Shown: positions 20,393 to 33,451 of the stretch, one piece after another | Position numbering within the stretch: the stretch's first letter is position 1 | Layout of the letters: every line of letters begins with the position of its first letter | Source: Clostridiales bacterium | GTDB taxonomy: Bacteria > Bacillota > Clostridia > Lachnospirales > Lachnospiraceae | Reading direction: 5' to 3' | Length of the DNA stretch: 64,000 bases | NCBI GenBank assembly: GCA_021199255.1 | Contig: JAJQIK010000043.1 | Location: 1,235 to 65,234 of the forward strand | Translations under genes and position numbers: made by a program | Notes under the pieces: model-generated | Database searches by the model: none | Told to the model about the DNA's origin: nothing | What the model saw: the letters and a program-made list of their open reading frames with translations, nothing else

Positions 20393-20448
20393 TTGACAAG
20401 AGGGAATAAATTTGTTAGTCTCGTAATCACAGTTAGTTATGACTAACT
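20393..20448 (+). promoter_or_regulatory. Candidate promoter (TTGACA-17-TAGTCT) and 7-4-7 palindromic operator AGTTAGT-TATG-ACTAACT for the nitrogenase-like operon
   Basis: TTGACA lies at 20393-20398 and TAGTCT at 20416-20421. The inverted repeat lies at 20431-20448, between the -10 box and the GGGAGG RBS. Confidence 0.4.
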
Positions 20449-20524
20449 CCTTATTGAGAAACGGATTTGCGGGTACGCGCCAAATCCACACGATACACCA
20501 AAAACAAAAGGGAGGATTTCTATT

Positions 20525-21310
20525 TTGTTAAAAATTGCAATTTACGGCAAGGGCGGCATCGGAAAATCTACAACTGCATCTAACCTATCCGCTGCCCTCA
20601 GCGATCTCGGATACAGGGTAATGCAAATTGGCTGCGACCCCAAATCCGATTCCACCAAAAATTTAATGTCCGGCCAGAAAATTCCAACTGTTTTAGACCA
20701 AATACGCGAAAAGGGCGTTGACAATGTACGTCTGGAGGACATTGTATTCACTGGATACGGCGGCATACTCTGTGTAGAGGCCGGCGGTCCCACCCCCGGC
20801 ATCGGCTGCGCCGGCCGCGGTATTATCACAGCCTTCGAAAAGCTGGAAGATTTAGGCGCTTATGAACAATATCGACCCGATATCGTTTTGTATGACGTTT
20901 TGGGCGACGTTGTCTGCGGGGGCTTTGCAATGCCCATCCGAGGCAATTATGCAGATCATGTGTTTATCGTGACCTCCGGCGAAATGATGGCGTTGTATGC
21001 CGCCTCTAATATTGCCAGCGCTATTCACAATTTTGGCAAACGCGGTTACGCCAGATTTTCCGGAATTATTTTAAACAAGCGGAATATAGACAACGAAGAA
21101 GCCCTTGTACAGAAAGCAGCCGAAGAGATGGACGGGCAGGTCATTTCTGTCATTCCCAGAGACTGTGCCGTACAGAAAGCAGAGGAACTGGGTATGACCG
21201 TTTTAGAGGCTCTGCCAGAAAGCGATATGGCACAATGCTATCGCAGGCTTGCTACAAAATTTTTGGAGGTGTGCGGACATGATGTGTTGCAATTGTCAGA
21301 ATCCATTTGA
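20525..21310 (+). CDS. NifH/BchL/CfbC-like ATP-dependent reductase (nitrogenase iron protein family)
   Basis: The start is a TTG with a GGGAGG RBS. The P-loop ([10 protein letters not shown]), switch I (CDPKSDST), cluster Cys (GIGCAGRGI) and switch II plus second Cys ([14 protein letters not shown]) are all present. Confidence 0.9.
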
Positions 21311-22553
21311 AAATACGCTGCGCTATTCTTCTCCCGCCCACGGCGGATGGGGAGTGGTGCGAATGGGGCACCTGCTGCCGGAAAGCTATCAGCTTTTTGT
21401 AAGCCCCGCTGCCTGTGGCCGTCATGGCGCCGTGGGCGCCTGTATGCAGGGCAGAAAAAGCCGGGTGTCTTACTTATATCTCCGGGAAGAGGAGATTGTA
21501 TCCGGCGGTTATGAAGATCAGCTTCTGGAAGCCGTAGACGAGCTTTTAGAATATCTCGCCAGCCATAATAAAACGCCTAAAGTGCTGATGATTTTTGTAA
21601 GCTGCATAGACGATTTGCTGGGTACCGACCATGACGCTTTGCTAATGCAGATACGGGAGCGCCATTCGGACGTCCGGTGTATATTCTGCCATATGAACCC
21701 GACGTCCATAGACACCAGCGTACCGCCTCCAGTCAATATCCAGAATAAAATATATAGTTTGCTGGATCCTGTCTCCAGCCATGACGATGGCGTCAACATG
21801 GTGGGAAATCTGGTGCCTCTGCTTCCGAACTGTGAGGCATATCGGCTGCTGCCCCAAATGAGCGCAAGCCCTGTGCGCCACCTGACAGACTATCGTACCT
21901 TTGCCGACTGGCAGGAAATGTCACGCAGCCGTCTGAATCTGGTCATTGCCCCGCCAGGGGAATATTCCGCAATGCAGATGCAGAAAAAGCACGGTACGCC
22001 ATATGAAATGGCGTTGACCTCTTACGACCCGTTGCAGGTGTCCCAAACCTACCGCGGCATCGCCGCCGCCTTGGGGGCGGATTGCCCCGACGTATCTGAT
22101 TACGAAACCCGCTGCGCGGAAGAAATGGAAAAAACCGCCAAAGCGCTGGGCGGAATCCCCGTGGTAATTGACGAGGATTCGGTTGCCCGCCCCTTCGATC
22201 TGGCAAAAGCGCTTTTAGAACACGGCTTTGCCCTCAAACGTATTATCGCGCAAAATGTAGTCCCCACCGATCAGCAGGCATATGAGTGGATACGGCGGCA
22301 CGCGCCCCAAATCGAAATCGTGCAGCCCCAACATCATCGGACTCTGCTATTTCATGATTCCATGCCGGACTGTCTGGCTCTTGGTTATAACAGCGGCTAC
22401 CTCACAGGTTCCAGCCATGTGATTCCGGCGGACGCACAACAGGGACATTGGGGTTATGCCGGCATTTTGGATATGATGCGCCTGTTCCGGGAAGGCGCGG
22501 CACATTCCACAGATTTAAAGGCTCTCATTGATGCAGCCGGATTGGTGGTGTAA
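21279..22553 (+). CDS. Nitrogenase component-1-type oxidoreductase subunit (NifD/E/BchN-like, 424 aa)
   Basis: The protein follows the Oxidored_nitro pattern ([21 protein letters not shown]). The start is an ATG at 21279 after a GGAGG RBS, and it overlaps the NifH-like gene by 32 nt. Confidence 0.8.
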
Positions 22554-23723
22554 ATGAAAGAATTATGGATTACTTTACCGGCCTTTGCGCCGGACTACTC
22601 CGGAGTCTGCTCCGCCATGTTTGAACTGGGAGGCATCTCGGTAATACACGATGCATCAGGCTGCACGGGCAATTATACCGGCTATGACGAACCTCGCTGG
22701 TATGGTTCTAATGCCAGGGTATTCTGCTCCGGCCTCCGGGAAATCGACGCGGTATTGGGCAGGGACGATAAACTGATCGACGACATTCTATACGCCTGCC
22801 GGGATTTGCAGCCGGCCTTTATCACTGTGCTTGGCAGCCCTGTCCCTATGGTCATAGGTACAGATATGAAGGGCATTGCCAAAGAATTGGAAAACCGCTC
22901 CGGCCTTCCCGCTTTTGGTTTTTCTACCAGCGGATTATATCTTTACAACAAGGGTATCTCGGAGGCTATGCAGGCTCTGGTACGGCGTTTTTCCAAGCCA
23001 ACGGCAGAGATCATACCAAATGCAGTCAATATTTTGGGTATGACGCCTTTAGACTTTTCCACTAATTCCAACGCTCAGGATTTGCCTCTTTGGTTGGAAC
23101 GGCAGGGCTTTACGGTACTGGGGCGGCTGATGATGGGAGTAACCCTGCATCAGATAGAAAACCTGGCAAAAGCCCAGGTCAATCTGGTGGTCACAGAGGC
23201 AGGAATGGAGACAGCAAAGCTGCTGAAACAAACGTACGGCACTCCTTATGTGGCGGCGCTCCCCATCTGCCAGGGGAAGAAGGTGGTCTCTCTTCTACAA
23301 AAAACCATAGAGGACGGCCAGGATCGAGTGTTGCTGGATCAGGCTGAGGAAGGCGGACTTTTGATTGTTGCAGAACAAATGCTTGGCAATGCGCTGCGTC
23401 ATGAGATTCTAAGACAAAGCCCCAGGACACGAGTCACCGTAGCTACGATGTTCGGCCTGAATCCGGCCATTGCGTCTCCAGGCGACCAGAATATCCCCAA
23501 CGAGGAAAGCCTGCGTTACATTCTGGGAAGCGGCCGCTTTCATCAGGTGGTCGGCGACCCCTTATTTAAAGAGCTGATTTCCCCAGCGGATCAGATAGAT
23601 TTTTATCCTATTCCTCACCCGGCGGTTTCCAGTAAGCTTCACTGGGATGAAGTCCCCGCCTGGTTGGGGACAGATATAGAACAACTTATTCACGCTATTA
23701 CAAAAGGAGGAGAAACAACATGA
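22554..23723 (+). CDS. Nitrogenase component-1-type oxidoreductase subunit (NifK/N/BchB-like, 389 aa)
   Basis: IHDASGCTGNY and VLGSPVPMVIGTD match the Oxidored_nitro pattern. The ATG directly abuts the upstream stop (TAAATG). Confidence 0.8.
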   Translation: MKELWITLPAFAPDYSGVCSAMFELGGISVIHDASGCTGNYTGYDEPRWYGSNARVFCSGLREIDAVLGRDDKLIDDILYACRDLQPAFITVLGSPVPMVIGTDMKGIAKELENRSGLPAFGFSTSGLYLYNKGISEAMQALVRRFSKPTAEIIPNAVNILGMTPLDFSTNSNAQDLPLWLERQGFTVLGRLMMGVTLHQIENLAKAQVNLVVTEAGMETAKLLKQTYGTPYVAALPICQGKKVVSLLQKTIEDGQDRVLLDQAEEGGLLIVAEQMLGNALRHEILRQSPRTRVTVATMFGLNPAIASPGDQNIPNEESLRYILGSGRFHQVVGDPLFKELISPADQIDFYPIPHPAVSSKLHWDEVPAWLGTDIEQLIHAITKGGETT

Positions 23724-24919
23724 AACATACACTGAAAAAATGGCTCTCACTGATTTTTGCCGCCACCCTTGCGTCAGGCGTTTTAACGGGCTGCGCATCT
23801 ACGTCCACGGAATCTGCCAGTATCGGCGGACAGATATTGGAAGAAGCGCAGGAAGAATCAGAAAACGAAATGATTACGCTGGAAGAAGCGCAGGAAGCAT
23901 CTGAAAGCGAAATGATCACCCTGGTGGACGACCGGGGCATCGAAGTCACCTTTCCCAAAAATCCGCAGCGTATCGTCATTACTTCCATCCTGCCCCTCAC
24001 CTCCGTCTATTGCCTCTACCGAGGCGGCACAGACAACCTGGTGGGAATTGCCGCAGCAGCCATGAGCGCCGCGGAACATTCCTATTTGGCGAAGATTTAT
24101 CCCGAAATATTGGATTTAGAATATAAATTTTCAGAAGGCGGGGAGGTCAACGTTGAGGAAGTGCTGAAGCTTGAGCCGGACGTAATTTTCTATCGCGCCA
24201 ACGAGGAAGCGGAAGGGGATATGTATATCAATGCCGGAATCCCTGCCGTTGCTTTCAGTACCAGCAAGTTCGGCTCCGATACCATCGCTACTTTTGCCGG
24301 TTGGATTGAGCTGTTAGATCAGATTTTTGGAGGTGGCGACCAGACGCAGGGAATCGTTGAATATGGCTACGAGATTCTGGATATGCTGCATGAGCGTACT
24401 GCGGATTTAACGGAAGAAGAACGCCCCAAGGCGATTGTATTCTCCGGATATTCCGGCAATCAGCTAACGGCAGCCGGCGGCAATATTTTTGCGGAATTTT
24501 ACCTTACCGAGGGCGGCGGCGTTAACGTGGCTTCAGAGCTTTCCGGTTCTCAGGCCGTCAATATGGAACAGATTTACGAATGGAACCCGGACGTGATTTT
24601 CATTAATAACTTCTGCCCATATGTCCCTGAAGATTTCTATAACAACGCCATCGAGGGCTATGATTGGAGCAATGTTTCCGCCGTGCAGAACCAACAGGTT
24701 TATAAATATCCTCTGGGAATGTACCGCTGGTATCCTCCCGCGGGCGACGCGCCCCTGAGTCTGGTTTGGGTTGCAAAGCAACTACATCCGGAACTGTTTG
24801 AGGACATTGATATGGATCAGATGGTGAAAGACTATTATCAGGAATACTATGGATACGCCCTGACCGACGAGGATCTGGCTGAAATTTATAATCCGCCCAG
24901 GGAGGCTGCGAATTACTGA
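23720..24919 (+). CDS. ABC transporter substrate-binding lipoprotein, FecB/BtuF (Peripla_BP_2) type
   Basis: A lipobox (LTGC) follows the signal peptide. Blocks typical of iron-siderophore, heme or corrinoid binding proteins are present (RIVITS..., KLEPDVIF, WNPDVIFI). The gene overlaps its upstream neighbour by 4 nt. Confidence 0.85.
   Translation: MKHTLKKWLSLIFAATLASGVLTGCASTSTESASIGGQILEEAQEESENEMITLEEAQEASESEMITLVDDRGIEVTFPKNPQRIVITSILPLTSVYCLYRGGTDNLVGIAAAAMSAAEHSYLAKIYPEILDLEYKFSEGGEVNVEEVLKLEPDVIFYRANEEAEGDMYINAGIPAVAFSTSKFGSDTIATFAGWIELLDQIFGGGDQTQGIVEYGYEILDMLHERTADLTEEERPKAIVFSGYSGNQLTAAGGNIFAEFYLTEGGGVNVASELSGSQAVNMEQIYEWNPDVIFINNFCPYVPEDFYNNAIEGYDWSNVSAVQNQQVYKYPLGMYRWYPPAGDAPLSLVWVAKQLHPELFEDIDMDQMVKDYYQEYYGYALTDEDLAEIYNPPREAANY
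23839..23922 (+). repeat. 42-nt tandem duplication in the lipoprotein linker (EEAQEESENEMITL x2)
   Basis: GGAAGAAGCGCAGGAAG...ATGAT.AC.CT occurs twice in tandem. Confidence 0.8.
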
Positions 24920-25947
24920 TGGAAAAAACAAAACGATTTCAGAAATACATTTTCATAGCGCTATGGATAACACCTGTTATTACAGCTCTCGTCTGCATTG
25001 GCATCGGCCGGTATTCCCTGAGCTTCTGGCGGACTCTGGAAATTTTGTTCTCACCCTTGCTCCAGCACGTCCCGCACATAGAGATTACCGATATGGAACG
25101 GTCTGTGGTCTTTGGGATTCGCCTGCCGCGAATCCTGCTGGCCATTGGCTGCGGCGCGGCGCTATCATCTTCCGGCGTTGCCTTTCAAAGCCTGTTCAAT
25201 AACCCGCTGGCCACACCGGATACCCTGGGCGTCTCCAGCGGCGCCTCCTGCGGAGCTGTCATTGCGTTAATGCTTGGCATGAATATGATTGGCGTCCAAA
25301 TCACGGCTTTGCTTTTTGGACTTGGCGCCGTTGCTTTAACCTGGACGGTTTCCAAGGTGCGGGGACAGAATTCCATTATTATGATTGTATTATCCGGCAT
25401 GGTCGTATCCGCCCTTTTCGAAGCCCTGGTGTCCCTGATGAAGTATGTAGCCGACCCTAACGACGTACTGCCCACCATTACCTATTGGCTGATGGGCAGC
25501 CTGAATCATTCCAGCTACTCCAGCTTACTGCTGGGAATGCCTTTTATTCTTGCAGGAATCCTTATTGTCTTTCTCTTACGGTGGCGGCTGAATATCCTGG
25601 CTTTAAACGAAGATGAAGCAAAATCTATGGGCATAAACCTGAAAGCCATGCGGCTGTTCGTCATCGTAGCCGCCACTATGATGACGGCAGCTTCTGTTTC
25701 CATGTGTGGGAAAATTGGATGGATTGGTCTGCTGATTCCCCATATTTCACGAATGTTGCTGGGCGGAAACACACAACGTACCGTCCCCGCCTGTATCAGC
25801 CTTGGCGCCGTGTTTATGCTGCTGATCGATACCCTGTCCCGCAGTATAATGGCCGCGGAGATTCCCGTCTCCATTTTAACGGCCATCATCGGCGCACCCA
25901 TTTTTATATCGCTTTTGCGAAAAACAAAAGGAGGTACGCAAGTATAA
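24919..25947 (+). CDS. ABC transporter permease, FecCD/BtuC family
   Basis: About 9-10 TM helices are predicted, with FecCD blocks (RLPRILLA, GWIGLLIPH, GAPIF). The start overlaps the upstream stop (TGATG). Confidence 0.9.
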   Translation: MEKTKRFQKYIFIALWITPVITALVCIGIGRYSLSFWRTLEILFSPLLQHVPHIEITDMERSVVFGIRLPRILLAIGCGAALSSSGVAFQSLFNNPLATPDTLGVSSGASCGAVIALMLGMNMIGVQITALLFGLGAVALTWTVSKVRGQNSIIMIVLSGMVVSALFEALVSLMKYVADPNDVLPTITYWLMGSLNHSSYSSLLLGMPFILAGILIVFLLRWRLNILALNEDEAKSMGINLKAMRLFVIVAATMMTAASVSMCGKIGWIGLLIPHISRMLLGGNTQRTVPACISLGAVFMLLIDTLSRSIMAAEIPVSILTAIIGAPIFISLLRKTKGGTQV

Positions 25948-26735
25948 TGATTTTTTCTGTAGAAAACGGTTCTTTTGCTTATAAAAAAGAAGAAATTTTA
26001 ACAAACCTGTCTTTTTCCGTAGAATCCGGTGAAATTCTGGCGATTCTTGGCTCCAACGGCGTCGGGAAAACCACGCTGCTGCGCTGTATGATGGGCTTGC
26101 TGCCATGGAAATCCGGACGCAGCACTATCGACGGACGCCCCATTAACGAATTTACCTCCAGACAGCTTTGGAGGATCCTCTCCTATGTTCCCCAGGCCAG
26201 GGGCGCGTCCTTTGCCTACACGGCAAGGGAAATGGTACTTTTGGGTCGCAGTGCGCACTTAGACGTTCTCAAACAGCCGAAACAAAAGGATCTGGACATC
26301 GTAGAGCGTTCCATGGAAGAAGTCGGGATTATCCACCTGGCAGAGAAAAAATGCACTCAAATGAGTGGCGGTGAGCTGCAAATGGTACTGATTGCCAGAG
26401 CGTTGACCGCAGAACCCCAGCTTTTGGTTCTGGACGAGCCAGAGTCTAACCTGGACTTTAAAAACCAGCTCATCATTCTGGATACCATCCGCCGTCTCGC
26501 CAAAGAGAAGCATATTTCCACTATTATCAATACCCATTATCCAGATCATGCCCTCAAGCTGTCAGATAAGGCTCTTTTGCTGCAACAACCGGGAGAAAAC
26601 AAATATGGCGCTACAGCTGAGATCATCAACGAAGAAAATATGCGCTGCTCTTTTGGCGTAAACGTGTCGATTCCCGATTTTTGCGTAGACGGCATCCGCT
26701 ACAATGCGGTAGTTCCACTATCCATTGTTTCATAG
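25947..26735 (+). CDS. ABC transporter ATP-binding protein (FepC/BtuD-like)
   Basis: Walker A (GSNGVGKTT), the signature motif MSGGELQMV and Walker B (LLVLDEPESNLD) are present. The true start is the ATG at 25947 (TAATGA overlap). The longer track ORF is an artefact. Confidence 0.9.
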   Translation: MIFSVENGSFAYKKEEILTNLSFSVESGEILAILGSNGVGKTTLLRCMMGLLPWKSGRSTIDGRPINEFTSRQLWRILSYVPQARGASFAYTAREMVLLGRSAHLDVLKQPKQKDLDIVERSMEEVGIIHLAEKKCTQMSGGELQMVLIARALTAEPQLLVLDEPESNLDFKNQLIILDTIRRLAKEKHISTIINTHYPDHALKLSDKALLLQQPGENKYGATAEIINEENMRCSFGVNVSIPDFCVDGIRYNAVVPLSIVS

Positions 26736-26758: not shown

Positions 26759-27985
26759 CTAACAAATTAAATCAGGAAACAGTTCTATGCTTCTCCCCAA
26801 AATCCCCTTCATATAGGCAATGGCTGTTCCATAGTTGGTGATCGGCACTCCCGCGTCCGCGGCGCACTGCATACGGCAGCGCACCTCTCGCTCGTTGAGC
26901 ATACAGCCCCCACAGTGGATCACCATGGCATAAGGAGACAAATCCTCCGGGAAGCCCATGCCCGACGAGGTTTCTATCACCAGCTCCCTGCCGGTATATT
27001 TATGCAGCCAGCGGGGAATCTTGACCGTACCGATATCGTCGCATTGTCTGTGATGGGTGCAGCCCTCCGAAATCAGCACACGGTCGCCGTCCTTCAGCTT
27101 ATCGATCGCCGTCACGCCCTGTACCGCCATGTGAAGAAGCCCTTTATACCGCGCCATCAGAATCGAAAAGGAAGTAAGCGTAATATCCTCCGGCACAATC
27201 CGGGCTACCTCTTCAAACGCCTGACTGTCCGTAACCACCATGGCGGGTTTCACTCCCAGACGCGCCAGCGTCTCTTGCAGTTCGCTCTCCTTTACCACAA
27301 TGGAAACCGCCCCCGCTTCCAGCAAATCCCTGATTGCCTGCTGCTGGGGCAGAATCAGCCTGCCCTTAGGCGCGGCGGAATCGATAGGCACTACCAGCAC
27401 CACAAAATCACCGGGGCGTACCAAATCCCCCAGCAGTCTCTTTCCGTCCTCCTGGGAGGCCGCCAGAGAGCCGATAGCTTCCTTCAATTCATGGATTCCC
27501 TGTCCCTTTAACGCGCTGACTGCAATCACGGCGGCGGCTTTATCCGCCCACAGTCCTTCGCAGGCCGCGGAGGCCTTCTCCGACGCCGCTCCCGCATCCG
27601 TCTTGTTAACCGCCACGATATAGGGGATTTGTTTCTGCCTGAAAAGCGCCGTCAATTCCTCATCGCAGGAGCCGGCTCCCTCTACTGCGTCTACTACCAG
27701 CACGGCTATGTCGGTTCTGTTCAAAACCTGTCTGGTCTTCTTTACGCGAAGTTCTCCCAGGCTTCCCTCATCATCAAAGCCCGGCGTATCAATTATTACC
27801 ACCGGCCCCAGCGGCAAGAGCTCCATCGCTTTCCAGACAGGGTCCGTGGTGGTTCCTTTCTGTTCCGAAACCACCGCCAGCTCCTGCCCGGTCACCGCAT
27901 TGACCAGACTCGACTTGCCTGCGTTCCTTCTGCCGAAAAAACCGATATGGATTCGTTCTCCCGAAGGTGTGTTGTTCATTCCCAT
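26759..27985 (-). CDS. hydF: [FeFe]-hydrogenase H-cluster maturation GTPase HydF
   Basis: The G1 motif (GRRNAGKSS) is present. The C-terminal cluster motif is CTHH...HCGGC. Confidence 0.9.
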   Translation of the reverse strand: MGMNNTPSGERIHIGFFGRRNAGKSSLVNAVTGQELAVVSEQKGTTTDPVWKAMELLPLGPVVIIDTPGFDDEGSLGELRVKKTRQVLNRTDIAVLVVDAVEGAGSCDEELTALFRQKQIPYIVAVNKTDAGAASEKASAACEGLWADKAAAVIAVSALKGQGIHELKEAIGSLAASQEDGKRLLGDLVRPGDFVVLVVPIDSAAPKGRLILPQQQAIRDLLEAGAVSIVVKESELQETLARLGVKPAMVVTDSQAFEEVARIVPEDITLTSFSILMARYKGLLHMAVQGVTAIDKLKDGDRVLISEGCTHHRQCDDIGTVKIPRWLHKYTGRELVIETSSGMGFPEDLSPYAMVIHCGGCMLNEREVRCRMQCAADAGVPITNYGTAIAYMKGILGRSIELFPDLIC

Positions 27986-28092
27986 AGCAATCCGCCTTTC
28001 CCATATACCCTGTTCTTCTTTATGATTTTCCCTTTGTTTGTGCTGCGCTGTTGTCCCCGGCACGGCCTAAGGCCTGCCGCAGGCCGCCGGTT

Positions 28093-29532
28093 TTAGAAAC
28101 GGAAATCTCTGATTCCCTCTTCAATCTTAGCCAGATGGTCTTTGGCAATCTCTCTCACATTTTCTTTCGGAATATTCTCTAATTCCGCCTGAATCAGCGC
28201 CTCGCCAATGGCTTTCGTATCCTCCGCCGCGTAATCTGTCAGATATTCCTTCAGGGTCATCAGGGCATTGGGGTGACAGCAATTCTGAATCTGTCCCGAT
28301 TTACACAGGCTCATGAAACGGTCTCCCGTCCTGCCCTCTCTATAACATGCCGTACAGAAGGAGGGAATATATCCCATTTCCATCAGCCACTTCACCACCT
28401 CGTCCAGCGTGCGCTGGTCGGATACGTCAAACTGTTCCGTATCCGTGGGGCGAATGTCTTCCGCATAACCGCCTACCGTGGTTCGGGAGCCGCCGGAAAT
28501 CTGGGATACGCCCAGACGGATTACCTTCTCGCGCACAGCCTGACTCTCTCTGGTGGAGATAATCATACCCGTATAAGGCACCGCTATACGGATCAGTGCG
28601 CAAATCTTGGCAAAAATATCGTCGCTGATGCCGTTATCAAAAGCGTCCGGGTCAATATCATCGGCTCTCTTAATACGGGGCACGCTGATGGTATGAGGCC
28701 CTACTCCGTGGACAGCCTCTAAATGCTCCGCATGCATCAGAAGTCCCGCAAACTCATATTTATAGCGTTCCAGGCCAAACAGCACGCCCAGTCCCACATC
28801 GTCGATGCCGCCCTCCATCGCCCTGTCCATCGCCTCCGTATGATAATTGTAATCATGCTTTGGCCCCGTAGGGTGAAGCTGCAGATAGCTTTCCTTATGA
28901 TAGGTTTCCTGAAAAAGAATATAGGTGCCGATTCCGGCCTCCTTCAGCATACGGTATTCCTCCACCGTGGTAGCCGCAATATTGACATTCACACGGCGGA
29001 TCGCCCCGTTTTTATGCTGAATAGAGTAAATCGTTTTAATACATTCCAAAATATATTCAATGGGATTATTCCTGGGATCTTCTCCCGCTTCAATGGCCAG
29101 ACGCTTATGCCCCATATCCTGCAGCGCGATCACCTCCTGTTTGACCTCCTCCTGCGTCAGCTTCTTGCGGGGGATATGTTTATTTTTCATATGGTACGGA
29201 CAATACACACAGCCGTTGACGCAGTAATTGGACAGATACAGGGGCGCGAAAATTACGATACGGTTTCCATAATAAGCTAGTTTGATCTCCTCCGCCAACG
29301 CATACATCCGCTCCAATACCTCCGGGTCGTCGCAGGCCAGCAGTACCGACGCCTCTCTGTGGTTCAAGCCGGCGCACACGGTAGAATTGCCCTCCCTGCG
29401 GGGTCTGGCGCTCTCCAGAATCTGATCGATCAATTCCCTGTTATCCTTATTCTGCTCCGCGTATTCCAGCGTCGCCAGAATCTCCTCGTGATTAATAAAA
29501 TCGTCTGCACATAATGATTTCGGATCATACAT
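28093..29532 (-). CDS. hydG: [FeFe]-hydrogenase radical-SAM maturase HydG
   Basis: The radical-SAM motif CVNGCVYC is present. The C-terminal auxiliary cluster motif is CTACYR...C. Confidence 0.9.
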   Translation of the reverse strand: MYDPKSLCADDFINHEEILATLEYAEQNKDNRELIDQILESARPRREGNSTVCAGLNHREASVLLACDDPEVLERMYALAEEIKLAYYGNRIVIFAPLYLSNYCVNGCVYCPYHMKNKHIPRKKLTQEEVKQEVIALQDMGHKRLAIEAGEDPRNNPIEYILECIKTIYSIQHKNGAIRRVNVNIAATTVEEYRMLKEAGIGTYILFQETYHKESYLQLHPTGPKHDYNYHTEAMDRAMEGGIDDVGLGVLFGLERYKYEFAGLLMHAEHLEAVHGVGPHTISVPRIKRADDIDPDAFDNGISDDIFAKICALIRIAVPYTGMIISTRESQAVREKVIRLGVSQISGGSRTTVGGYAEDIRPTDTEQFDVSDQRTLDEVVKWLMEMGYIPSFCTACYREGRTGDRFMSLCKSGQIQNCCHPNALMTLKEYLTDYAAEDTKAIGEALIQAELENIPKENVREIAKDHLAKIEEGIRDFRF

Positions 29533-29538
29533 TGTACT

Positions 29539-30594
29539 TTACCTTCCTTTCTTTTCTCCCAGGCTTCCCTTCCAGTCGCCTCTGGTTTCCGCGATTTGAT
29601 ATCCTGCGGAAGCAACCCTTCGTTTCATACACTCAATACATTCCGCCGCTTCGTCCCCGGTACAGATCTTGTTATCATAGAGGGCGTACTGTTTTCTCAC
29701 AGATACCGGCGACAGATTCGGCATCACCACGTTGGCTCCCGCCTTTAACCCCAGTTCTCTCCCCTGCGGGTGAATCGTCCCCAACGCCGTAGTGGACGGA
29801 ATCAACGCCTGCGGTAGCAGCAGCCTGGTCAGCGCCACCATCGTAAGCGTCCGTTCCAGACTCCCCTGCGCCTTATCCCGGAAGGGCGTATCATGGTGCG
29901 GAATAAAAGGCCCGATGCCCACCATATGAGGCTGAAGTTCCCGCATAAACCGCATATCCGCAATCAGATCCTCCGTAGTCTGATAAGGGGAGCCCACCAT
30001 AAATCCGCATCCCACCTGATAGCCGATTTCCTTCAGATGATACAGGCATTGGATACGGTGATCGTAGCTTAATTCCGCCGGATGCAGCCTCCCATAGTGG
30101 GTTTTTCCCGCCGTCTCATGCCGCAGCAGATAACGATCCGCCCCCGCATCATACCAGCGCTGATAGTCGGGCTTCTCCCGTTCGCCCAGCGAAAGGGTCA
30201 CCGCACAGTCCGGATATCTCCTTTTGATCTCTCTTACCAGCTCCGCCACATATTCTGTGGTATAAAAAGAATCCTCTCCGCCCTGCAGGACATAGGTGCG
30301 AAACCCCAATCCATATCCAATCCGGCAACATTCCAATATCTGTTCCTTAGATAAACGATAGCGCTCCGCGTGGAAATTGCTCCTGCGGATACCGCAATAA
30401 AGACAGTCGTTTCTGCAATAACTGGAAACCTCTATCAATCCTCTGATGTAAACGTCCGTGCCATAATGCCGCCTGCGGATTCGGTCAGCCTCCGCATAGA
30501 GCAGGGTTCTGTCATATTCTCCTTCTATCAGCCGCTTCCACTCTTCGTCTGTCGGGTCATGCCCTGCCGCCAGCTTATCAATCAGGTCTTTCAT
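29539..30594 (-). CDS. hydE: [FeFe]-hydrogenase radical-SAM maturase HydE
   Basis: The CRNDCLYCGIR motif and a BioB-like fold pattern are present. Confidence 0.9.
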   Translation of the reverse strand: MKDLIDKLAAGHDPTDEEWKRLIEGEYDRTLLYAEADRIRRRHYGTDVYIRGLIEVSSYCRNDCLYCGIRRSNFHAERYRLSKEQILECCRIGYGLGFRTYVLQGGEDSFYTTEYVAELVREIKRRYPDCAVTLSLGEREKPDYQRWYDAGADRYLLRHETAGKTHYGRLHPAELSYDHRIQCLYHLKEIGYQVGCGFMVGSPYQTTEDLIADMRFMRELQPHMVGIGPFIPHHDTPFRDKAQGSLERTLTMVALTRLLLPQALIPSTTALGTIHPQGRELGLKAGANVVMPNLSPVSVRKQYALYDNKICTGDEAAECIECMKRRVASAGYQIAETRGDWKGSLGEKKGR

Positions 30595-30872
30595 GAAGAA
30601 TCCCCTCCCGTCCCGGATTCCTCACATACAATGCTGGAATAAGCGATCTTGCTGTTGATTCCCGGCAGCTTACCGATTTTGCCGGACAAAGCGTTAATCG
30701 CGTCCTGCGGCGCGTCTATCGCCACACTGATAATGTGAATACCGCATTTCTGATAAGGCAGCCCCATTCTGCCGATAATATACTTTCCATACTCGTGCAG
30801 CAGCGTATTCAGCTTGTCCACGGAATCCATATTTTCTACGATAATACTGATCGTAGCCACTCGTGTCTGCAT
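30591..30872 (-). CDS. TM1266-family putative iron-only hydrogenase system regulator (ACT/NikR-C-like, 93 aa)
   Basis: MQTRVATISIIVENMDSVDKLNTLLHEYGKYIIGRMGLPY matches the TIGR03959-type pattern. The start was set at the ATG at 30872, which has a GGAAAGGAG RBS. Confidence 0.75.
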   Translation of the reverse strand: MQTRVATISIIVENMDSVDKLNTLLHEYGKYIIGRMGLPYQKCGIHIISVAIDAPQDAINALSGKIGKLPGINSKIAYSSIVCEESGTGGDSS

Positions 30873-30903
30873 TCTGCTTCTCCTTTCCCGCGCCACAGAA
30901 ACC

Positions 30904-30938
30904 AAAAAAAGCCATATCCTTCTTCTGAAAGATACAGC
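30904..30938 (-). terminator. Intrinsic terminator inside the 5' leader of the hyd maturase operon (attenuator)
   Basis: The RNA reads GCUGUAUCUUU-CAGAAG-AAGGAUAUGGC. This is an 11-bp stem with 3 G-U pairs, followed by U7, and it ends about 30 nt before the RBS. Confidence 0.6.
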
Positions 30939-31080
30939 CGCCTGTATGTCCATTCTCCGCCTGTTGTGCCTGCACCCCGATCGCAGGATACGCGCCAGTC
31001 CGGAAGAATCTCTGTATATCCGCCGTTCTTTCATCTCAAAGCCTGTTTTTGATGTCAGAAGCACTATTGTTTTCTGTGAT

Positions 31081-31114
31081 AAAAGACCCCGGCAATGATT
31101 CTTACCGAGGTCTT
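31081..31114 (-). terminator. Terminator downstream of tRNA-Gln
   Basis: The RNA reads AAGACCUCGG-12 nt-CCGGGGUCUUUU. Confidence 0.6.
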
Positions 31115-31339: not shown

Positions 31340-33451
31340 TTAAATCTCAAACATTAACTCGCCATATGTAGGAATCGGCCAGATATCCTTATCCACAATC
31401 ATTTCCAGCTCATCGGCGGGAGTCCGAAGCTCTTCCATAACCGCTTTTACCGTATCCTTGTAGAAGAATGCCTGCGCCTTGATATCCTCCATTGCGGACG
31501 CTTCCTCTTCCGCTTTCTCCAGCTTGACGAGAGCCGTCTGCATAGCTGCCAGCTTCCCGCTCACTTCTTTCAAAAGATCTGTCTGGATACTTGCGTCCGC
31601 GCCTGCTGCCTTTACGGCATTGATGGTATCGGCCAGCGCCTTGGTGTATTTGATAACAGCGGGAATAATCTGCTTGCCTGCCATATCGATCATTGCCAGC
31701 GCTTCAATATTAATGGTCTTCGCATAGGTTTCATAAATAATCTCTTCGCGGGACTCCAGCTCTACCTTGGTGAAGATACCGAATTTCTCAAACAATTTAA
31801 CCGCCTTGTCTGTTGTAATGGTACTTGCGGCTTCAATCATAGATTTAATATTCGGAAGGCCTCTTCTCTCAGCTTCAGCGACCCACTCGTCCGAATAGCC
31901 GTTGCCGTTAAAGATGATTCTCTGATGCTCCGTCATGTACTCTTTAATCAGGTCATGAATAGCAAGCTCAAGATCGTCCGCGCCTTCCAGTCTGTCGGCG
32001 GCTTCGCAGAATGCCTCCGCTACAATGGCATTCAGGGTGGTGTTCGGGCTCGCAATCGAATCAGCGGAGCCTACCATACGGAACTCAAATTTATTACCCG
32101 TGAAAGCAAAGGGCGAGGTTCTGTTTCTGTCGGTGGCGTCCTTCTGGAAATCAGGAAGGGTCTTAACGCCTGTGAGAAGCTTGCCGCCTTCCTTCACGGA
32201 GGTAGCCACGCCCGTCTCGATCAACTGTCTAACCACATCCTCAAGCTGCTCGCCAAGGAAGATAGAGATAATAGCCGGAGGCGCCTCGTTGGCTCCCAGC
32301 CTGTGGTCGTTGCCCACATCAGAAGCCGACTGGCGAAGCAGATCCGCATGGGTATCGACTGCCTTCATAATGCAGGCGAGTACCAGCAGGAACTGAACAT
32401 TTTCATTCGGCGTATCGCCCGGATCTAAGAGGTTTACGCCGTTATCTGTTGTAATAGACCAGTTATTGTGTTTACCGGAGCCGTTTACGCCCGCGTATGG
32501 CTTCTCATGAAGCAGACATCTCATGCCATGGCGGATAGCTACTCTCTTCATCGCTTCCATTACAAGCTGGTTATGGTCTACCGCGATGTTAGCCGTCTCA
32601 TAGATAGGCGCCAGCTCATGCTGTGCGGGAGCCACTTCGTTATGCTGTGTCTTGGCGGTAACGCCCAGCTTCCAAAGCTCTTCGTTCAAATCCTTCATAT
32701 ATGCGCCGACACGCTCTCTGATAACGCCGAAGTAATGATCTTCCATCTCCTGGCCCTTCGGGGCAGGCGCTCCGAATAAGGTACGCCCCGCAAACATCAG
32801 ATCGGTTCTCTTCATATATAAGTCTTTATCTACCAAAAAATATTCCTGCTCAGGTCCTACGGACGCTACAACCTTGGTGGCCTCCGTGTTGCCAAACAGT
32901 CTGACAATACGCAGCGCCTGCTCGCTGAGGGCTTCCATGGAACGTAAAAGCGGCGTCTTTTTGTCCAGCGCCTCGCCTGTGTAGGAGCAGAACGCGGTGG
33001 GGATACAAAGAATGGTTCCGCAACCGGATTCCTTTAAGAAAGCCGGTGATGTGATATCCCATGCGGTATAGCCTCTCGCCTCAAACGTCGCCCTTAAGCC
33101 GCCTGAAGGAAAAGAAGATGCATCCGGCTCTCCCTTAATCAGCTCTTTACCGGAGAACTCTGTCAGCATTTTGCCCTGTTCATCAGGATGAGCTACGAAA
33201 GCGTCATGCTTTTCTGCGGTAATGCCGGTAAGCGGCTGGAACCAGTGGGTATAATGGGTCGCGCCGTTCTCTACAGCCCAGTCCTTCATGGCTTTCGCAA
33301 CTACATTAGCTGTCGCCATGGATAACTCGCCGCCCTGATCCATAACCGTTACAACCTCTTTGTATACATTCTTCGGCAGACGCTCTTTCATTTTGCCGAG
33401 AGTGAATACATTTTGTCCAAAAATCTCTTCAACATTAAATACTTCGCTCAT
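31340..33451 (-). CDS. glnN: Glutamine synthetase, type III (703 aa)
   Basis: The length and N-terminal sequence ([33 protein letters not shown]...) match GS-III, as do the catalytic blocks ([20 protein letters not shown]). Confidence 0.9.

Follow-up and report, generated by a model that had tools for sequence, protein, structure and literature searches.

A conserved leader hairpin before TM1266-hydEGF genes in Clostridia is apparently a cis-regulatory RNA and a candidate OFF attenuator

The leader and its operon

The window, that is, the whole stretch of 64,000 nucleotides analysed here, carries on its minus strand the operon TM1266-hydE-hydG-hydF (26759-30872), downstream of a glutamine synthetase gene, a tRNA gene and a leader (Table 1). 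The NCBIfam models for TM1266, HydE, HydG and HydF (TIGR03959, TIGR03956, TIGR03955 and TIGR03918) agreed with the operon identity given in a first-pass annotation, and the leader, which that annotation had put at about 200 nt between the tRNA-Gln terminator and the first maturase gene, measured ~208 nt. To our knowledge, the control of HydE, HydG and HydF synthesis in anaerobes is essentially unknown, and we know of no function for the TM1266 protein, whose family is annotated only as "putative regulator" and whose structure (PDB 2nzc) has been available since 2006. A widespread hyd-specific leader RNA would offer a concrete handle on the control of the H-cluster maturases, which matters for how gut and rumen communities turn over hydrogen and for the engineering of hydrogenase expression.

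Table 1. Features of the leader, its operon and its neighbours in the window.
Feature	Position	Strand	Remarks
Type III glutamine synthetase gene	31340-33451	minus	first in the local gene order, followed by tRNA-Gln, leader and operon
Promoter-like site of tRNA-Gln	31233-31205	minus	11/12 in promoter scan; near-consensus
tRNA-Gln(CUG)	31191-31119	minus	ARAGORN; Rfam tRNA, 64.5 bits
tRNA-Gln terminator hairpin, 8 bp	31112-31085, U-run 31084-31081	minus	read from sequence
Helix 0	31060-31057 with 31029-31026	minus	outer helix; CU and AG of the flanks can pair
Purine loop 1	31056-31055 / 31031-31030	minus	
Helix a	31054-31051 with 31035-31032	minus	
Purine loop 2	31050-31049 / 31037-31036	minus	
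Helix b	31048-31046 with 31040-31038	minus	
Terminal loop	31045-31041	minus	
Motif tail (predicted antiterminator 5' strand)	31032-31022	minus	overlaps helix a and helix 0
Variable spacer	30940-31021	minus	holds P1 5' strand, P2, third hairpin and both ACAGGCGG copies
Intrinsic terminator	30904-30939	minus	5' arm 30939-30927, loop, 3' arm to 30910, U7 30910-30904
RBS	30888-30880	minus	read from sequence
TM1266 start codon ATG	30872-30870	minus	TM1266 family alignment begins at the same Met
TM1266-like gene	30872-30591	minus	NCBIfam match far above cut-off; Pfam PF21699
hydE	30594-29539	minus	NCBIfam match far above cut-off
hydG	29532-28093	minus	NCBIfam match far above cut-off
hydF	28063-26759	minus	NCBIfam match far above cut-off

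The promoter scan revealed no sigma-70-like promoter in the ~24 nt between the tRNA terminator and the conserved motif described below (31061-31085, minus). The closest relatives, loci L043 and L044, have ~55 nt at the corresponding place, with a consensus TTGACT-17-TATAAT that sits 14 nt upstream of the motif; the motif of the relatives thus starts a few nt after the promoter. The hyd operon in the window may be transcribed by read-through from the tRNA-Gln promoter or from a promoter that the scan did not recognise. In the transcript runs searched, 5-6% of the query words were matched, probably from the tRNA.

The context of the TM1266 operon varies inside the genus of the window. In ten loci, representing most same-genus relatives, the TM1266 gene lies directly behind another ORF, which resembles the end of an ABC ATPase in one group and encodes a conserved protein of unknown function in another, and no leader is present there. 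A nitrogenase-like operon on the plus strand (20393-26735) converges on hydF in the window, and no copy of the motif was found before it. A 157-aa open frame runs from a GTG at 31064 through the leader into TM1266 (30591-31064, minus); we consider this frame a sequence accident, as the alignment of the family and the RBS both point to ATG 30872 as the start. A leader peptide was also rejected, as neither an AUG within the motif nor the frame from GTG 31064 is conserved, other lineages having GUG, CCG, UUG or GAG at that place.

A conserved hairpin upstream of the variable spacer

Taken alone, the structure of the leader is not beyond chance: the MFE of the whole leader had a z-score of -1.83, with 5 of 200 shuffles folding as well, and a 1-kb scan returned one terminator-like site against 0.8 expected. 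What lifts the leader above chance is conservation in other loci, and this conservation falls in 31060-31022, a region that the first-pass annotation had not singled out. We compared ~130 related loci; TM1266 loci were gathered from 60 relatives and a species-genome collection, and their upstream regions were cut out. The comparative alignment of upstream regions that the annotation had suggested did bring out a conserved cis-regulatory leader RNA, with the conservation lying outside the helices that it had drawn.

The conserved element, which we regard as the sensor candidate, is a hairpin of 35-39 nt (31060-31026, minus) upstream of those helices, and it is present in the full-length predicted MFE structure. 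It consists of three short helices separated by two 2x2 purine-purine loops, with the flanks CUGA on the 5' side and RAAG on the 3' side. About 12 nucleotides are conserved; the purine loops and flanks are invariant and the terminal loop is unconserved. No junction or pseudoknot was seen in the hairpin. A first covariance model, R1, built from 7 sequences, was too narrow (18.9 bits for the window) and was superseded by R2, rebuilt from 33 sequences, which matched the window at 31024-31062 with 39.2 bits (E 1.7e-7).

Covariation was evaluated in alignments made by the covariance model, which are thereby fitted to, and biased towards, its structure: alignment A5 had 98.4% canonical pairs and 15 double-change cells, a number reached by none of 500 shuffles, and alignment A8, with 55 distinct sequences, had 98.8% of cells paired and 71 double-change cells versus 18.6 ± 3.2. 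In A8, five of the six pairs showed compensatory change, G-U pairs included. Helix 0 is based on two invariant pairs, so that covariation cannot test it. Two other kinds of element were considered and rejected, namely a CsrA-type GGA loop (some copies have CAGGN loops, yet the loop is unconserved) and a DNA operator (G-U pairs are retained, copies always read in the direction of the coding strand, and the motif lies downstream of promoters).

Among the four closest leaders (TM1266 86-100% identical), 77% of the columns were invariant in the motif and tail, versus 17% in the spacer between 31021 and 30940; in the terminator, the 5' arm was invariant throughout (100%), and in the 3' arm, where the changes are compensated, the figure was 25%. 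The length of the spacer is highly variable between loci.

These proportions bear directly on the model put forward in the first-pass annotation, in which a helix P1 (AUACAG 31017-31012 with CUGUAU 30937-30932) encloses a helix P2 (31009-31001 with 30959-30952) and a further hairpin (30987-30983 with 30973-30969), and a ligand stabilises P1 and thereby switches the operon ON. All of these pairings exist in the window; P2 and the hairpin at 30987-30969 appear in both MFE and centroid structures, the 3' strand of P1 is indeed located within the 5' arm of the terminator, and the duplicated element ACAGGCGG was found at 30964-30957 and 30945-30938. The terminator with its U7 tract before the RBS was also recovered, with 13 pairs at 30939-30910 overlapping the U7 run and 15 nt ahead of the RBS. 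As a sensor, however, these helices fared poorly: they fall in the spacer, of which 17% is invariant among relatives with 86-89% TM1266 identity; those relatives have neither AUACAG nor either copy of ACAGGCGG, and in other lineages the spacer is just 5-20 nt long. Together with the folding energies given below, this makes a P1-based ON switch scarcely credible.

Two side observations concern the layout of individual leaders. L044 (1238-1503) has two serial terminators between motif and RBS, the second within an extra insert of ~90 nt. Moreover, six loci with Christensenellales-type leaders have a possible divergent tandem hairpin ~45-75 nt upstream of the main copy, with the same flanks and another inner loop, which was matched by a separate descriptor and not by R2.

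The motif is confined to hyd-related genes

In its own 3.08-Mb genome, the window holds the one credible R2 match, and the genome has one TM1266 gene. A blind R2 search of 150 Clostridia genomes gave 20 matches in 19 genomes, the window's own included. All 16 matches with E < 2e-3 outside the own genome, plus one at E 0.012, lay directly upstream of hyd-related genes, namely TM1266, hydE, hydG, a hyd-linked aspartate ammonia-lyase (aspartase) and a NifH-like gene; three further weak matches (E 0.008-0.03) look spurious. The positions of these matches support the motif independently of the model-fitted alignments. In 100 TM1266 loci, R2 found 57 matches in 52 loci, every one on the coding strand, and a phylum-level genome sample added one new motif match. 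Relatives from Roseburia and Agathobacter are among the carriers (L054, L058, L069 and L070). In three loci the motif heads NifH-like (nitrogenase-reductase-like) and aspartate ammonia-lyase genes. A DNA similarity search with the leader in 400 same-family genomes returned merely chance matches of 19-33 nt; judged by nucleotide similarity, the leader sequence is unalignable outside close kin.

Consistently with the first-pass annotation, which could not match the leader to a riboswitch class, an Rfam/Infernal scan of 30873-31080 gave no match at the gathering threshold or at E <= 10, Rfam 15 families such as ZTP, the PyrR binding site, T-box, the SAM classes, NiCo and nhaA-I included, and the motif in 20 other leaders had no Rfam match at E <= 1. 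The likeness to ZTP riboswitches (pfl motif) noted in that annotation did not hold: it comes down to the heptamer ACUGGCG (30999-30993), which lies in the unconserved spacer and has no pseudoknot partner. Nor did the searched literature on TM1266, hydrogenase regulation and riboswitch candidates describe such a leader RNA. Control of the H-cluster maturase genes by a cis-RNA appears new, as had been suggested, and the element before them is a real and conserved cis-regulatory RNA that is apparently undescribed.

Pairing between motif tail and terminator predicts an OFF polarity

The tail of the motif (31032-31022) is complementary to the terminator 5' arm (30938-30927) over 11 pairs with one bulged A. 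For a nascent RNA ending at 30923, the unconstrained MFE structure contained this tail/5'-arm helix (-38.7 kcal/mol), whereas the same RNA with P1 enforced reached -35.1 kcal/mol, 3.6 kcal/mol less stable than the conserved antiterminator. In the full-length RNA, the combination of hairpin and terminator was favoured, at -47.1 versus -45.4 kcal/mol for the alternative. The first-pass annotation had proposed a fold mutually exclusive with the terminator through the 5' arm of the latter; this logic stands, with 31032-31022 and not AUACAG (31017-31012) as the conserved partner strand.

Across 26 loci, each tail paired with its own terminator arm with a mean of -10.5 kcal/mol versus -8.0 for cross-locus pairs, and none of 20000 permutations was as good, in a comparison that leaves the relatedness of the loci uncontrolled; the portion of the tail beyond the conserved GAAAG gave p = 0.087 alone. 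Of 42 parsed relatives, 33 had a terminator call, a few of these misplaced, and most of the remaining nine have the motif directly against the RBS. Two features of terminator/antiterminator attenuation were found, namely a terminator between the element and the first ORF and an alternative pairing kept across lineages.

From the observed conservation and covariation of the motif, its hyd specificity, the tail-terminator complementarity and the folding energetics, we propose a three-part transcription attenuator composed of the hairpin 31060-31026, the tail 31032-31022 and the terminator 30939-30904. The tail would pair with 30938-30927 to form an antiterminator that encloses the variable spacer and, since the free nascent RNA prefers this structure, the operon would be read through by default. 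A trans-acting factor that holds the hairpin closed would withhold the tail, the terminator would form, and TM1266-hydEGF would be OFF. Since helix a and helix 0 share nucleotides with the antiterminator, whatever keeps the hairpin closed should let the terminator form; we thus infer the direction of switching from the predicted folds, and OFF, by termination or by a blocked RBS where the hairpin is stabilised, is the most likely polarity. The ligand-dependent antitermination (ON) of the first-pass annotation runs counter to this folding.

Copies of the motif next to ribosome-binding sites

At least 16 sites have RAAG followed within 0-4 nt by the Shine-Dalgarno (SD) GGA, with no terminator, and no conserved anti-SD pairing was seen at these sites. 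There, in lineages other than that of the window, the hairpin lies right next to the RBS and would act by blocking translation. As the motif abuts the SD and has no conserved anti-SD pairing, steric occlusion by a bound factor would be the only route common to these sites, and OFF by occlusion is the reading that we infer for terminator and RBS-adjacent arrangements alike.

A very uniform second copy lies between hydE and hydG in many operons (12 loci), ~1.3 kb downstream of the TM1266 start, and its 3' flank runs directly into the hydG ribosome-binding site, without a terminator. The window, in which 6 nt separate hydE from hydG, leaves no room for such a copy and lacks it.

The recurrence of the motif between hydE and hydG, abutting an RBS, would be unexpected if the element were no conditional switch at all, that is, if the hairpin acted constitutively, stabilising the 5' end or serving as a processing signal, and the terminator only damped read-through from the strong tRNA-Gln promoter. 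This explanation would fit the window, where no promoter of the operon's own was found, and the relatives, where the transcript has the motif at its very 5' end, a place where protective hairpins occur. Such a signal would, however, need neither a tail matched by covariation to the terminator arm nor invariant purine loops and flanks, and the confinement of the motif to hyd maturation genes would again be unexpected. We consider it improbable.

TM1266 as the candidate factor

We favour an attenuator OFF switch operated by a candidate protein factor, for which TM1266 is the best candidate, and put this reading at a probability of roughly one half; the identity of the factor is conjecture. The trans-acting factor is most likely a protein, and conjecturally a TM1266-family protein, possibly in an effector-bound form; control would then be by feedback. 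In favour of a protein are the tiny core of the motif, the unpaired SD at the RBS sites, the position of TM1266 as the first gene behind the motif, in the window and in most loci, and the absence of any DNA-binding domain from TM1266. The TM1266 fold is NikR-C/ACT-like (predicted structure, pLDDT 91), with 2nzc and NikR C-domains as the best matches; ACT domains were also among the results, as were ribosomal chains, these matching weakly and at high rmsd. Against TM1266 as the factor, the protein lacks a basic character, and the domains closest to it in structure bind metals and ligands, with no known RNA binders among them.

We then compared the distribution of motif and gene. In a first sample of 150 genomes, 11 of 93 HydG-positive genomes lacked TM1266 and none of these 11 had the motif within 7 kb of hydG; moreover, every genome with a motif match at E < 2e-3 has TM1266. 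In a second sample (n = 400), TM1266 was missing from 44 of 247 HydG-positive genomes, and 2 of 22 fetched TM1266-negative genomes had the motif, versus 6 of 22 TM1266-positive controls. Pooled, the motif lay near hydG in 6/22 TM1266-positive versus 2/33 TM1266-negative genomes (one-sided Fisher p = 0.037, with phylogeny uncontrolled and p = 0.12 in either sample alone), and 82% of HydG-positive genomes carry TM1266 regardless. The two motif-bearing exceptions, G835 (98% complete) and G951 (93% complete), had no TM1266 at E <= 10, and other sampled genomes from their genera do carry it; their TM1266 gene may fall in assembly gaps, or else the protein is dispensable. The link between motif and TM1266 is suggestive, not established.

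More specifically, and only tentatively, the TM1266 family could represent a novel type of RNA-binding attenuation protein that recognises the tandem-purine-loop hairpin and switches off both transcription (terminator) and translation (RBS occlusion) of the maturases, the probable signal being a metal or an H-cluster precursor that the protein binds. The hyd leader would then be the RNA target that finally assigns TM1266 a function.

The main rival to TM1266, and a serious one even if we find it on balance unlikely, is a small-molecule or metal-ion riboswitch, in which the purine-loop hairpin would itself bind a ligand, for example Fe(II), a precursor of the H-cluster or a compound consumed or made by HydG or HydE, closing helices 0 and a so that the terminator forms and the operon is OFF. 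Such an architecture, with a closing helix that competes with the antiterminator, is that of P1-controlled OFF riboswitches; the statistical weakness of the TM1266 association and the two genomes with the motif before hydG and no detectable TM1266 also speak for it. Very small hairpin-type riboswitches exist, for example nhaA-I Li+, preQ1-I and guanidine-II, which share with the hyd element a minimal core, a platform that shares its 3' strand and transcriptional as well as translational versions. Unlike in these classes, the SD is not paired within the hyd element, which has no Rfam match. Against a riboswitch stand the ~12 conserved nucleotides without visible junction or pseudoknot, the unconserved terminal loop and, at translational sites, an SD located beyond the hairpin and lacking any conserved partner strand, so that a small ligand would have no evident way to hide it. 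Were the element an orphan riboswitch nonetheless, knowing its ligand would show what cells keep track of while they assemble the H-cluster.

Comparison with known attenuation systems

For the favoured protein-operated attenuator, the closest parallel is PyrR in the Bacillus subtilis pyr operon (RF00515), where the regulator gene comes first, the protein-bound hairpin acts as an anti-antiterminator and leads to termination, and the same binding site recurs at several points in the operon. The hyd leader resembles it in the regulator-first operon, in the predicted anti-antiterminator hairpin and in the recurrence of the site within the operon. It differs in that no sequence or covariance-model match to the PyrR site was found here, the candidate TM1266 is NikR-C/ACT-like and not a PRTase, and the hairpin has two tandem purine loops and would serve RBS occlusion in many loci. 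By analogy, the hyd leader would work like PyrR-type attenuation without being a member of that class.

HutP (hut) and TRAP (trp) are likewise small oligomeric proteins that require a ligand and act on a leader or intercistronic terminator, as proposed here for the hyd factor. HutP antiterminates, whereas the hyd element is predicted to terminate, and both HutP and TRAP recognise repeated triplets, in contrast to the structured hairpin of the hyd leader. The hut terminator follows hutP and, in a comparable arrangement, the motif follows the TM1266 gene in three of our loci.
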